8,253 bases of DNA from a virus (taxonomy: Duplodnaviria; Heunggongvirae; Uroviricota; Caudoviricetes): the IMG/VR virus record IMGVR_UViG_3300011952_000012; one strand, 5' to 3'. Under the pieces are notes generated by a model. It worked only from the letters and a program-made list of their open reading frames with translations. It did no database searches and was not told the DNA's origin. Both the position numbers and the translations under genes were made by a program. Positions 1,156 through 8,253 of the stretch are shown here, one piece after another. The first letter of the stretch is position 1, and each line of letters starts with the position of its first letter.

Positions 1156-1310
1156 NNNNNNNNNNNNNNNNNNNNNNNNNNNNNNNNNNNNNNNNNNNNN
1201 NNNNNNNNNNNNNNNNNNNNNNNNNNNNNNNNNNNNNNNNNNNNNNNNNNNNNNNNNNNNNNNNNNNNNNNNNNNNNNNNNNNNNNNNNNNNNNNNNNNN
1301 NNNNNNNNNN
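1156..1310. other. Run of 155 N (unresolved or masked sequence); hides the terminase large subunit C-terminus and the gpW N-terminus
   Basis: Directly visible as n characters in the sequence. Confidence 0.98.
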
Positions 1311-4032: not shown

Positions 4033-4262
4033 ATGAACAAAGAAAAAATCGAAGCCTTAATGAGCGTAATATTAAAAGAAGCTGACCCCAAAAAATTTCC
4101 TGAGAAATTATCAGAGGACGCCATCGTATCTTTTTATCGTGCGAACTCCTCTTACCTACATTGTTCAACTTTAAGAGAATGGTTAAGCGGCGAAGCAGAG
4201 CCTTCAGATGAGATACTTGAGGAGATTATGGTTCAGAACAACTGGCGCGCAACTAAATGGTC
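4033..4262 (+). CDS. Hypothetical protein, low-GC moron-like ORF (3' end lost in or near the 10-N run)
   Basis: Only plus-strand ORF with a plausible hydrophilic translation (MNKEKIEALMSVILKEADPKKFPEKLSEDAIVSFYRANSSYLHCSTLREWLSGEAEPSDEILEEIMVQNNWRATKW). Markedly AT-rich compared with flanking phage genes, preceded by an AT-rich region 3890-4030. No clear SD. The ORF-track continuation after the gap is antisense to the lipoprotein signal peptide and is probably not real. Confidence 0.35.
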
Positions 4263-4272
4263 NNNNNNNNNN
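4263..4272. other. Run of 10 N (placeholder gap) between convergent genes
   Basis: Directly visible. Confidence 0.98.
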
Positions 4273-4403
4273 GTAATCTTCGTACCCGGCGCGATCGTCA
4301 CGTGTTTAATGCTGCTGCCGTCAGCGCGAGTCGCTTCGGTGTATGTCGAATGTGTGCAGCCTGCCATCGTGAAGAACGCGACAGCTAAGAGAAGTTTTTT
4401 CAC
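4273..4403 (-). CDS. Putative lipoprotein (N-terminal part; possible spanin or Bor-like outer-membrane lipoprotein), 3' end in or beyond the N-run
   Basis: GTG at 4403-4401 lies 7 nt after the endolysin stop (TAG 4413-4411). Translation V/MKKLLLAVAFFTMAGCTHSTYTEATRADGSSIKHVTIAPGTKIT... has a canonical lipoprotein signal peptide (KK n-region, hydrophobic core, lipobox-like MAG-C). All three minus frames hit stops within about 25 codons below the gap, so the protein is short unless the gap hides more. Confidence 0.55.
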
Positions 4404-4410
4404 GTTTTAC

Positions 4411-4890
4411 CTACGCTTCTGAGATAGATTTCTCAGCATTCACCAATGGAAGTGATTGTGGAACATCCGTTTGACCTGCTGGCCAGCGATAGCCTGTTAC
4501 GCGGGAACGAGGAAAAGCTTTGATATTTACTTCATCTGCCTGGTTGCCCCCCAAAATCATTAAATCCCCGGCGGCATTTTTCCCGACAACAAAACCAACG
4601 TGGCCACCGCCAGACCGAGACAGAATAGCAATGCATCCATAGGCAGGTTCCTTCAGTTCATTACCCCAATCGAGATAAGAATTCGCAGACTCAAAACGCG
4701 TTGAGCGAATACCAACACGTTCCAGCATTGCTCCGGTGAAGGCGGCGCACCATGGTGTTTCGTCATCCTTAATACCGCCGCGTTTGATATCTTTCCAGTA
4801 CTGCACAATTTCTGCAGCATGTTGCTTCCCTTTCATTTCCCGGATGCCGAGATTTTTTCGTGCCTCAATTAGCCATTTAGGATCGGTCAT
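4411..4890 (-). CDS. Putative endolysin: Cys-His peptidase (CHAP / NlpC-P60-like, TIGR02594-like) peptidoglycan hydrolase
   Basis: 159-aa ORF with RBS GGAGA about 6 nt upstream. Candidate catalytic Cys in DETPWCAAFTG and His in GGGHVGFVVG. Sits directly after two small membrane proteins and before a lipoprotein. Start overlaps the upstream stop (TAATG). Confidence 0.6.
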   Translation of the reverse strand: MTDPKWLIEARKNLGIREMKGKQHAAEIVQYWKDIKRGGIKDDETPWCAAFTGAMLERVGIRSTRFESANSYLDWGNELKEPAYGCIAILSRSGGGHVGFVVGKNAAGDLMILGGNQADEVNIKAFPRSRVTGYRWPAGQTDVPQSLPLVNAEKSISEA

Positions 4891-5162
4891 TACCTGTCTC
4901 CTGTTATTTTTGAAATATTTCCTCGTGCCCGCCAGACAGCAATACAGATGGTGAGGTTGAGAAAGAACTCTGCGGGATCAACCTGCGTATATTTCCCGTA
5001 AAAAATTCGTAGGGCTATCCACGCAGCAGACAGAATCGCCAGGTAAGCAGTTAGTGAGATAAAAAAACGATAGCGGCCTGTTTTTTGAAAAAACATCAAC
5101 CGCAGTGCCAGCATCAGACAGATAATTGCATTGGCATTGATGAGGACAGAGTGCAGGGTCAT
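4890..5162 (-). CDS. Small integral membrane protein (holin or antiholin-like), second gene of the lysis cassette
   Basis: 90-aa ORF with about three hydrophobic segments (AIICLMLALRLMFF, FFISLTAYLAILSAAWIALRIF, FFLNLTICIAVW). RBS AAGGGGA about 8 nt upstream. Stop and start overlaps with both neighbours (TAATG) suggest translational coupling. Confidence 0.6.
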   Translation of the reverse strand: MTLHSVLINANAIICLMLALRLMFFQKTGRYRFFISLTAYLAILSAAWIALRIFYGKYTQVDPAEFFLNLTICIAVWRARGNISKITGDR

Positions 5163-5545
5163 TATTTCATCCCCTTATCTGATTTCCATAAACGAGCTTG
5201 TGACATGATCCGCAACAGTGATGTAACGCTGATTACTGATGCAACCAGTGCACCAATGGCGGGAGAGACTTTTACTGTTACGGGAGGGTTCAGGTGACTC
5301 AGCACCGCATTCAGAATACCGGTAATGATGGCTGATGCTGTCTCAGCGCAATACACACCGCCAACAAACGAAATGAGTGCGAAAATAACCTGCTTCCAGA
5401 ATCGATGCTGCCCGGATGACAACACATAGAGAGCTGCGCCTGCCAGCGCACAGATCATCACTGCAGGTGTTGCCTCAGGAAATAACGCAGCAAACGTCAC
5501 CCCCGCCGAGCCAGCAGCAACGCCAGCGGTTAGAGGTTCAGACAT
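5162..5545 (-). CDS. Putative holin (multi-TM membrane protein), first gene of the late/lysis operon
   Basis: ORF track gives 5162..5671, but the ATG at 5545 (MSEPLTAGVAAGSAGVTFAALF...) has an RBS AGGAAA 6 nt upstream and lies downstream of the terminator hairpin; the longer start would run through that hairpin. 127 aa with 3-4 hydrophobic segments and a charged C-terminus (RLWKSDKGMK). Confidence 0.6.
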   Translation of the reverse strand: MSEPLTAGVAAGSAGVTFAALFPEATPAVMICALAGAALYVLSSGQHRFWKQVIFALISFVGGVYCAETASAIITGILNAVLSHLNPPVTVKVSPAIGALVASVISVTSLLRIMSQARLWKSDKGMK

Positions 5546-5561
5546 GATTTTTCCTGATTCA

Positions 5562-5590
5562 GAAACGACAAAACCCCGCCGTGGCGAGGT
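5562..5590 (-). terminator. Rho-independent terminator-like hairpin between the Q-like gene and the holin (tR'-like)
   Basis: Minus strand reads CCUCGC-CACG-GCGGGG (6-bp GC-rich stem, one G-U pair, 4-nt loop) followed by UUUUGUCGUUUCU. In lambda the Q-dependent terminator tR' lies in the equivalent position. Confidence 0.4.
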
Positions 5591-5625
5591 TCTTAGAAAT
5601 TTGGCAACATACCAAATTAGCGTTA

Positions 5626-5657: not shown

Positions 5658-6092
5658 TTATACGCAAACATCGTCTAAATGGTTCTGATAATGATGCAAA
5701 GTTGCAAAAAGTGCCACTTCATCAAGTGCTCTCACCGCCTCTTTCATTCCTACCCAGTGCGGGGAGTATGTTTCGCACCAGGTGGAACGAGAAACAGACA
5801 ACATTCCAGCTAGCGCAGATCCGGCCATCTCCTTAAAATCCTCGCGTTTATTTGCTGCTGCGACCGCCTGCACGGACAACCACACCAACGAAAGCAGGCG
5901 CTTGACTACTTTTCTCTGAGTTGACGCAGAGATGTTTCCTTTATAGCGACTCCAGACAGCCTCACAAATAGCTGTTTGGTGTTTGAACGCCAGGTTACCA
6001 CCGTAGCAATAGCGCAACCACGCCTGCTGGCTAACGTCGAGCGCGTTCACGGCACGGCGCCACGATGAATCAGCGAATTCAAAATCATTCAT
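5658..6092 (-). CDS. Putative late-gene antiterminator (Q-like), 144 aa from the ATG at 6092; may continue upstream across the N-run
   Basis: Open frame with a credible translation (MNDFEFADSSWRRAVNALDVSQQAWLRYCYGGNLAFKHQTAICEAVWSRYKGN...). It is the last gene before the promoter/terminator region and the holin, which is the Q position in lambdoid phages. I do not recognise the sequence as a specific Q family, so the function is inferred from synteny. Confidence 0.45.
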   Translation of the reverse strand: MNDFEFADSSWRRAVNALDVSQQAWLRYCYGGNLAFKHQTAICEAVWSRYKGNISASTQRKVVKRLLSLVWLSVQAVAAANKREDFKEMAGSALAGMLSVSRSTWCETYSPHWVGMKEAVRALDEVALFATLHHYQNHLDDVCV

Positions 6093-6126
6093 CGGCGGCG
6101 CGGGGCGACGTCTGCTGAAACTTTCC

Positions 6127-6136
6127 NNNNNNNNNN
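6127..6136. other. Run of 10 N (placeholder gap) inside the Q-like region
   Basis: Directly visible. Confidence 0.98.
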
Positions 6137-6333
6137 TAAACTGGCGGAACCAGAGCATCAACGGTCCGGTCCTCCAGTTGCACACGATGAATATGTTTGC
6201 GTGGGTATGCGTTTTTATCTGCTGGCGGGTGCTCACACAATGCTTCCAGTTGCCCCTTAGAACCACCAGACAAATCCCGTAATGCAGCACGCAGTTTTAT
6301 GCGGGTATATTCCAATAAATACTCGTTACTCAT
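6137..6333 (-). CDS. Small ORF upstream of the Q-like gene (65 aa visible before the N-run); either a separate small gene or the N-terminal part of the Q-like protein
   Basis: ATG at 6333-6331 overlaps the stop of the YbcO-like gene (TGATG). Translation MSNEYLLEYTRIKLRAALRDLSGGSKGQLEALCEHPPADKNAYPRKHIHRVQLEDRTVDALVPPV then enters the gap. After the gap this frame stops at 6087-6085, 8 nt inside the ATG-initiated downstream frame, but gap length is unknown so frame continuity cannot be judged. Confidence 0.4.
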
Positions 6334-7612: not shown

Positions 7613-8253
7613 TTATTTTTCATTTCCATAAACATGGGTTAACCATTTTCTAATAGTTGACTCCGCCGGAACGTCAGCATATTTTTTTACGAGAATTTCG
7701 TTAATACGTGCCACCGCCGCACTAACCCGTGCGTGGGGATTATTTGTGAAAAAAACCTCTGCAATCTGTAATGCCTCGTCTTTTAGCCTGTGCTGTGGCC
7801 TCCCTCCGCCCTTTGTTCCCAGATAACGCGCCAGTTGTTTGAACCGGTACGCCACGATTAGTGGCCGCATCATCATATTGAAAAAATCACGTGCATCGTC
7901 GTCCTCTCCTCGCGCTATCAACAGCGCAAAAAACAGGTACGGTATTGTATATACGTCAGGGGAAATCATTACGCGCCTGCACACAGTCGGCGCCAGTGCG
8001 ATCAGTGTGTCTGCCAGCGCGTCGCTCTCTCCTCCACGTTTGTAATACCGGTAGAGTGGTCCTAAGTCGAGTTCACTGGTATTGAATCCAGTCACAGCCT
8101 CACGAACCTCGTCTGCCAGCGCGTTGTAAATCGCCCCTGTACGTTTTGTGTAGAGTCTCCGGGTTGCCCCCCGGTTATCCAGCGCCCGCAGCATGTCAAG
8201 TCGGGTGACAAACGTTTCAGGCCAGTCCTCATAGAATGATCTCATATCCACCT
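7613..8253 (-). CDS. Hypothetical protein (at least 212 aa, probably truncated at the window edge)
   Basis: Long minus-strand ORF with a non-repetitive translation (...RSFYEDWPETFVTRLDMLRALDNRGATRRLYTKRTG...TIRKWLTHVYGNEK). The frame is open to the last base of the window; the ORF-track start is a GTG at 8251 with an ATG at 8245. No family recognised. Confidence 0.65.
   Translation of the reverse strand, partial: VDMRSFYEDWPETFVTRLDMLRALDNRGATRRLYTKRTGAIYNALADEVREAVTGFNTSELDLGPLYRYYKRGGESDALADTLIALAPTVCRRVMISPDVYTIPYLFFALLIARGEDDDARDFFNMMMRPLIVAYRFKQLARYLGTKGGGRPQHRLKDEALQIAEVFFTNNPHARVSAAVARINEILVKKYADVPAESTIRKWLTHVYGNEK

Follow-up and report, generated by a model that had tools for sequence, protein, structure and literature searches.

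The window, by which we mean the whole 8,253-nt stretch of the viral record IMGVR_UViG_3300011952_000012, holds a run of minus-strand genes that is laid out as a phage lysis cassette (Table 1). Genes for a DUF1367 protein, a YbcO-type nuclease and a Q-type antiterminator precede a terminator-like hairpin, which is followed by genes for two small membrane proteins, a soluble enzyme and a lipoprotein. The first-pass annotation, made from the sequence alone, had described two small multi-TM genes followed by an enzyme gene, and all three were located exactly where it had placed them. Moreover, the TAATG junctions that it reported were confirmed, with one base common to each gene pair, at 5162 and 4890. 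The lipoprotein gene begins 7 nt beyond the endolysin gene, and beyond it lie a small convergent gene and then the genes of the small and large terminase subunits. The cassette is therefore placed between Q and the terminator on one side and the terminase genes on the other.

Table 1. Features of the lysis region in the window (position 1 is the first letter of the window).
Feature	Coordinates	Strand	Basis or remark
DUF1367	7206-6610	minus	
YbcO-type nuclease	6701-6333	minus	
Q-type late-gene antiterminator	5658-6290	minus	PF06323, 96.8 bits; phrog_304, E 1.6e-53
Intrinsic-terminator-like hairpin, 10-bp stem then TTTTGTCGTTT	5570-5593	minus	Terminator scan and sequence
127-aa membrane protein, PF16931 (Phage_holin_8), putative antiholin/holin partner	5162-5545	minus	
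90-aa 3-TM protein, PF05449 (Phage_holin_3_7, ex-DUF754), putative class-I-like holin	4890-5162	minus	
159-aa soluble TIGR02594/CHAP-like cysteine peptidase, putative endolysin	4411-4890	minus	
Lipoprotein gene, 5′ part	4273-4403	minus	GTG start at 4403; lipobox LAGC; spanin position

The antiterminator gene carries the RefSeq name 'bacteriophage antitermination protein Q' in NZ_CP049101. The spacer between this gene and the first lysis gene is 112 nt long and holds the hairpin, which we infer to be a tR′-type target of Q antitermination. A promoter scan upstream of the cassette gave no sigma-70 candidate above threshold, and the best candidate found by eye, TTGCAA-17 nt-CATATT, matched 8/12 positions. 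The first lysis gene could also be drawn as a longer ORF of 169 aa. However, the start at 5545 is favoured because both the Pfam and the PHROG alignments begin at that Met, and because RefSeq annotates the same 127-aa product.

Four N runs interrupt the window (1156-1310, 2239-2248, 4263-4272 and 6127-6136), the last of them within the Q gene. The run of 10 N at 4263-4272 stands for 139 nt of the closest relative, in which this segment takes in the final 21 codons of the lipoprotein gene, a hairpin and the terminal part of the convergent gene. A 56-aa lipoprotein ORF that can be read at 4403-4233 was therefore rejected as a chimera made by the N mask; the real product in the closest relative is 64 aa long. 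An unmasked copy of the gene lies at 2164543-2164737 of NZ_CP049101.

The cassette shares 97.7% DNA identity with Escherichia phage vB_EcoM-705R4 (ON470624), with the gene order alike and no substantive difference between the two, save that only the window has N masks. In its packaging and head genes the phage is lambda-like, and its tail is contractile. The chromosomes of 476 out of 5426 complete E. coli genomes (~9%) carry the cassette, mostly as a single copy, and its prophage counterparts in RefSeq are WP_001294589.1, WP_000172496.1 and WP_000131873.1. Both membrane proteins are 100% identical to RefSeq proteins, the 127-aa protein to WP_001294589.1 ('putative holin'), and the endolysin differs from the copy in NZ_CP049101 by one residue. 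RefSeq labels the cassette proteins as 'putative holin', 'phage holin family protein' and 'TIGR02594 family protein', whilst GenBank uses 'putative 3TM holin' and 'putative peptidoglycan hydrolase'. Since both databases already carry such annotations, the holin/endolysin interpretation is not new. We regard the locus as an ordinary late lysis cassette of a lambdoid-type E. coli prophage, common and made up of catalogued families; as a lysis cassette it offers nothing new, its genes, families and predicted roles being already in public annotation.

The enzyme had been assigned to the CHAP or NlpC/P60-type peptidases on the strength of two motifs, TPWCAAFTG (containing Cys48) and GGHVGFVVG (containing His97), both of which are present in the 159-aa protein. 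This assignment is supported by a TIGR02594 match, the conserved Cys and His, the predicted fold and the endolysin position. The domain search placed the protein in a peptidase family, with a full-length match to TIGR02594 (NCBIfam, NlpC/P60 superfamily) that scored 137.8 bits (cut-off 70.55; residues 6-136 aligned to 2-132 of the 132 model positions). The Pfam CHAP model PF05257 narrowly missed its gathering threshold (25.8 against 26 bits; residues 42-116 aligned to 3-81 of 81 model positions), and it is precomputed in most homologues. A database search with the protein returned 1746 proteins at E <= 0.001. Cys48, His97, Asn116, Gln117 and Asp119 are invariant in 38 aligned homologues, which are among the best-scoring of the 1746 and are 63-81% identical. 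From this conservation Cys48, His97 and Asn116 emerge as candidate catalytic residues.

An AF2 model of the protein (pLDDT 82.4) was compared with the PDB using Foldseek, and the top ~40 matches were all NlpC/P60 or CHAP enzymes, with probabilities of up to 1.0. They include E. coli MepS, B. subtilis LytE, C. difficile Acd33800, the CHAP domain of LysK from phage K and the T6SS amidase Tse1, at E values of 5e-5 to 1e-2 and with only moderate TM-scores (0.43-0.52). Searching the PDB by sequence with the endolysin brought up no meaningful match. Sequence identity to MepS, LytE, CHAP-K and P. aeruginosa Tse1/Tae1 is just 14-20%, whereas the papain-like fold, as predicted, and the Cys-His(-Asn) arrangement are common to all of them; what sets TIGR02594 apart from these enzymes is its N-terminal helical part (residues 1-45). 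With hhalign, His97 and Asn116 paired with their catalytic counterparts in CHAP-K in a weak C-terminal alignment (probability 30%), and the family alignment gave no usable alignment with an approximate sequence of Tse1. Taken together, the sequence and the model support a Cys/His papain-fold peptidase of the NlpC/P60-CHAP superfamily in the endolysin position.

An experimentally characterised relative is Lysqdvp001 (Plychap001) of Vibrio phage qdvp001, whose catalytic part is homologous, Cys and His motifs included, and 45% identical over 152 aa. Lysqdvp001 (236 aa) has an extra N-terminal PG_binding_1 domain, whereas the window protein corresponds to the catalytic domain alone. The isolated catalytic domain of Lysqdvp001 lyses V. 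parahaemolyticus in vitro (PMC9180635). The putative endolysin would be expected to act on the peptide portion of peptidoglycan, be it as an amidase or as an endopeptidase on stem peptides or cross-links; for no member of the family did we find a published identification of the cleaved bond.

Homologues of the enzyme were present in 593 deposited phage genomes. They stand in the endolysin position of several further kinds of cassette, beside differing holins and in some phages beside Rz/Rz1; examples are Pseudomonas phage Kakheti25 (gp3), a Shewanella locus with GTA_holin_3TM, and Klebsiella and Salmonella prophages in which they stand beside phrog_126 holins. The best PHROG match of the enzyme is to the C-terminal part of the 'baseplate hub subunit and tail lysozyme' family and, since PHROG lumps it with tail lysozymes, some of its relatives will be virion-associated domains rather than endolysins. 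Moreover, TIGR02594 domains are found in T6SS effectors too (PMC13055248). Both observations would fit a peptidase that is virion-associated or secreted and acts as an effector or entry lysin, the true endolysin being encoded elsewhere. We consider this very unlikely, however, as the protein is free-standing at 159 aa, its start overlaps the holin stop codon, its homologues occupy the endolysin position as described above, and the 27-kb phage record has no other annotated muralytic gene.

Hydropathy analysis found no hydrophobic window in the enzyme (KD mean >= 1.3 over 17 residues), and its N-terminus is polar (MTDPKWLIEARKNLGIRE). The enzyme would therefore be a soluble endolysin of the cytoplasm, dependent on a large-hole holin. 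The first-pass annotation had offered three options for the membrane proteins, namely a holin with an antiholin, a two-component holin or a pinholin; the first two stand, and the third is disfavoured because the enzyme lacks a SAR or signal segment. In a pinholin system the small membrane protein would do no more than depolarise the membrane and the enzyme would be exported by Sec as a SAR-endolysin. Small holins of 2-3 TM segments can indeed be pinholins, but membership of this class was rejected on the hydropathy of the 159-aa protein. In addition, other phages use this holin pair with soluble GH19 and GH24 endolysins, and a pinholin here is extremely improbable.

The two membrane proteins belong to two curated families of putative holins. 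The 127-aa protein matches PF16931 at 44.4 bits (threshold 26.4; residues 1-117 aligned to 1-107 of 121 model positions) and the holin family phrog_198 (E 2.7e-34), whilst the 90-aa protein matches PF05449 at 67.7 bits (threshold 25.4) and phrog_217 'holin' (E 4.4e-31). These matches, like that of the enzyme to TIGR02594, lie far outside what chance would give. Their multi-TM character was borne out by hydropathy, with three segments in the 90-aa protein and 4-5 in the 127-aa protein, the latter ending in a basic C-terminal tail. The 90-aa protein has a strongly basic first loop (QKTGRYR), a slightly acidic second loop and a basic tail (RARGNISKITGDR). From this charge map and the positive-inside rule we infer an N-out/C-in topology, which would make the protein class I holin-like. 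A lambda-type dual start is absent from both proteins, the next Met codons lying at residues 17 and 30. A viral-contig scan with the 90-aa protein alone recovered near-identical prophage copies only; protein-mode BLAST against deposited phages gave more.

We compared the neighbourhood of both genes across phages. In 8/8 phages inspected, a sample rather than a census that spans four unrelated groups, the PF16931 gene lies immediately upstream of the PF05449 gene. What follows the pair varies. In the present lambdoid E. coli prophage it is the TIGR02594 peptidase endolysin; in Aeromonas AsXd-1 (Hendrixvirinae), Salmonella SPN1S (Uetakevirus) and Escherichia HK639 (unclassified Caudoviricetes) a GH19 endolysin; in Escherichia Pollock (N4-like) a GH24 endolysin; in Burkholderia AP3 (P2-like) a PG_binding_1 + DUF3380 muramidase; and in Klebsiella prophage ST512-KPC3phi13.3 (unclassified) a gene annotated 'lysozyme'. 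Enterobacter EcP1 (N4-like) has an Rz-like gene after the pair and no endolysin gene directly after it. The pair therefore forms a mobile two-gene module that is compatible with any soluble endolysin. It is widespread, and the E. coli version described here sits in the most tractable host.

The division of labour within the pair is less firmly set. In the Burkholderia P2-like phages KS5, KS14, KL3 and AP3, the PF16931 and PF05449 genes stand in this order directly before the endolysin gene, as they do here, and encode a putative antiholin (gp13/gp35) and a DUF754 holin (gp14/gp34); the PF16931 protein is ~36% identical to its Burkholderia counterparts. These homologous pairs were named 'putative antiholin' and 'holin' on position and TM count alone (PMC3091744, PMC5247547). 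Our search of the open-access literature found no genetic or biochemical test of any PF16931 or PF05449 member, and 'holin' and 'antiholin' are for that reason labels drawn from position and topology. On balance, we lean towards an antiholin followed by a holin.

Two other arrangements were weighed. Two-component holins have been reported for some Gram-positive phage systems. Both membrane proteins of the present cassette could likewise be needed to form the hole, which would fit their strict linkage and constant order in all eight phages irrespective of the endolysin, their basic C-terminal tails and their shared placement in PHROG 'holin' families. The 1-nt overlap also points this way, as translational coupling suggests near-equimolar synthesis of the two proteins. 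Against this, the published readings of homologous pairs prefer an antiholin with a holin, albeit on topology and position alone, and we hold an obligate two-component holin to be possible though rather unlikely. The roles could also be reversed, with the 127-aa protein forming the hole and the 90-aa protein regulating it, given that Pfam and RefSeq name PF16931 'putative holin' too and that several curated genome annotations keep the label 'antiholin/holin'. The 90-aa protein is, however, the more typical class I holin in its size, three TM segments and charged tail, and its gene is directly upstream of the endolysin gene in all inspected cassettes except that of EcP1; such a reversal therefore appears improbable.

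The preferred arrangement, a 3-TM class I holin with a separate multi-TM timing protein, is analogous in its proposed logic to P2 Y (holin) and LysA (antiholin) and to lambda S105/S107. Homology of the pair to P2 Y and LysA was tried and rejected, as it was not detectable by BLASTP (E 0.30 and 1.5); P2 Y is a PF04550 member, and PF16931 does not match LysA. The pair would thus work like them at most by analogy.

We think it probable that the cassette as a whole works by holin release of the peptidase. Judging from gene order, Q-dependent read-through of the terminator would give one transcript of four tightly packed genes, the first three of which would be translated as a coupled unit through the TAATG overlaps. 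The 90-aa PF05449 protein, most likely the canonical holin, would accumulate in the inner membrane and trigger to form a large hole, with the 127-aa PF16931 protein most likely acting as its dedicated partner, either a timing-setting antiholin or a co-holin. On triggering, the soluble enzyme would escape to the periplasm and cut the peptide moiety of murein. The downstream lipoprotein would probably act at or on the outer membrane.

Measured against the canonical three-step model this cassette is incomplete, because no spanin is present. In the glycosidase-endolysin cassettes that have the same holin pair, leaving out the gene after the Klebsiella lysozyme, Rz-like spanins follow; in the Burkholderia phages Rz/Rz1 follow the muramidase, whereas here the cysteine peptidase is followed by the lipoprotein only. 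Hidden, nested and overlapping spanin ORFs were sought following the LambdaSo precedent, and no i-spanin-like ORF of an Rz/Rz1 two-component spanin was found around the lipoprotein gene in the loci L001 (NZ_CP049101), L033 and L036. A simple filter for an i-spanin (an N-terminal TMD with a hydrophilic remainder) found none in the 27-kb phage record. A unimolecular spanin of the T1 gp11 type was also rejected: although the lipoprotein has a lipobox, its C-terminal end (…GGCIDSTGAEASCLGGK) is hydrophilic and forms no TMD. A 139-aa lipoprotein encoded elsewhere in the phage record was likewise rejected as a u-spanin, as it has no C-terminal TMD and sits at the prophage edge.

Lastly, we examined the lipoprotein itself. 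After its lipobox, LAGC with Thr at +2, comes a mature part of 48 residues with two conserved Cys, which reads roughly C-THTTYTEATRADGSTVKHVAIAPGTKITTAxGGCIDSTGAxTTC and is not proline-rich. An AF2 model was of low confidence (pLDDT 58) and uninformative. Members of the family are 61-69 aa long, all annotated as 'hypothetical', and form a small family of ~70 clusters, confined to the Enterobacteriaceae genera Escherichia, Salmonella and Citrobacter, with no match to Pfam or to a functional PHROG; tblastn against deposited phages returned the same phage only. The mature part is strikingly constant across the family and the signal peptide is variable.

In 7/7 contexts the lipoprotein gene lies directly after the endolysin gene, and the partner endolysins are all peptidases. 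These contexts comprise the TIGR02594 enzyme with the PF16931/PF05449 pair; TIGR02594/CHAP-type peptidases (one homologue at 81%, one at 67% and a third), each preceded by one unrelated membrane protein that matches phrog_126 where checked; two with Peptidase_M15_4; and one with Peptidase_M15_3 and Phage_holin_3_3 in a BPP-1-like element. None of the seven has a PF03245 neighbour.

The lipoprotein in the spanin position is the sole element of this cassette that might repay experiment. Spanin-less phages make up ~13% of surveyed genomes (PMC6139136), and cassettes that lack spanins and carry a highly conserved lipoprotein bear on how such phages breach the outer membrane. We found neither a description of this lipoprotein gene in such a role nor one of lipoprotein-only outer-membrane disruptors in the open-access literature. 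Tentatively, the lipoprotein could be a self-sufficient factor for outer-membrane disruption or envelope release that takes the place of spanins in Enterobacteriaceae prophages with peptidase endolysins (TIGR02594, M15_3, M15_4), although we would sooner bet against this than for it. Given that the mature peptide is near-constant while holins, endolysins and virion types vary, it would act on a conserved component of the host envelope rather than on a phage partner. Receptor-blocking exclusion lipoproteins are known, of the T5 Llp or Cor type, and the present protein could be one of these. Such an exclusion role is less likely, however, because the family is constant across differing virion types and is tied to the lysis cassette.

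The lipoprotein gene that follows the endolysin belongs to a family found only in the Enterobacteriaceae. In all seven contexts the endolysin preceding it is of the peptidase type (TIGR02594, M15_3 or M15_4), and no Rz-like i-spanin was identified near the lipoprotein gene in any of the seven. The lipoprotein is a candidate spanin substitute. The list of spanin-less phages compiled by Kongari et al. (PMC6139136) includes ECML-4 and the BPP-1 group. A search for homologues in deposited phage genomes showed that ECML-4 carries a TIGR02594 protein, whilst the lipoprotein is present in the cassette of a BPP-1-like element (L036). Several of the listed spanin-less phages overlap with the carriers of TIGR02594 or the lipoprotein identified here, and it is possible that the absence of spanins is linked to peptidase lysins.

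The N runs in the window are masks whose length differs from that of the true gap; the 10-N run at the lipoprotein gene stands for 139 nt of the closest relative. ORFs that span an N run are distorted, namely the 56-aa lipoprotein, a 129-aa plus-strand ORF, Q and the large terminase subunit.

Features of the window and of the corresponding E. coli locus (L001, NZ_CP049101)
Feature	Position	Strand	Remarks
Lipoprotein gene	4263-4403 (complete in L001, 5298-5492)	minus	small, highly conserved, directly 3′ of endolysin
Convergent 86-aa gene	4033-4262; L001 5552-5812	plus (minus in L001)	phrog_5191
Terminator-like hairpin, strong	5570-5593	minus	24 nt upstream of first lysis gene, just downstream of Q
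212-aa ORF	7613-8251	minus	phrog_5215 (unknown function), E 2e-102
N runs	4263-4272, 1156-1310, 2239-2248, 6127-6136		masks

Upstream of the lysis genes, the placement of the hairpin after the antiterminator gene Q matches the arrangement expected of a Q-antiterminated tR'. A consensus scan returned no promoter above threshold in this region; inspection by eye gave TTGCAA-17 nt-CATATT (about 5655-5627) as the best candidate.

The convergent 86-aa gene, which separates the terminase genes from the lysis cassette, encodes a protein with only a faint match to HTH_3 that belongs to a family of unknown function. The gene appears to be a moron that has inserted into the late operon.

In one related cassette, from a Salmonella prophage (L028-L030), a gene for a 271-aa protein (L028 2189-3004) matching phrog_887 'queuine tRNA-ribosyltransferase' (PHROG, E 6.5e-86) separates the holin-like gene from that of the TIGR02594 endolysin, an unusual position for a DNA or tRNA-modification-type gene. 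Lastly, the 212-aa ORF had no Pfam match; it is conserved at the corresponding position of the related phage under the annotation 'All2787 protein'.
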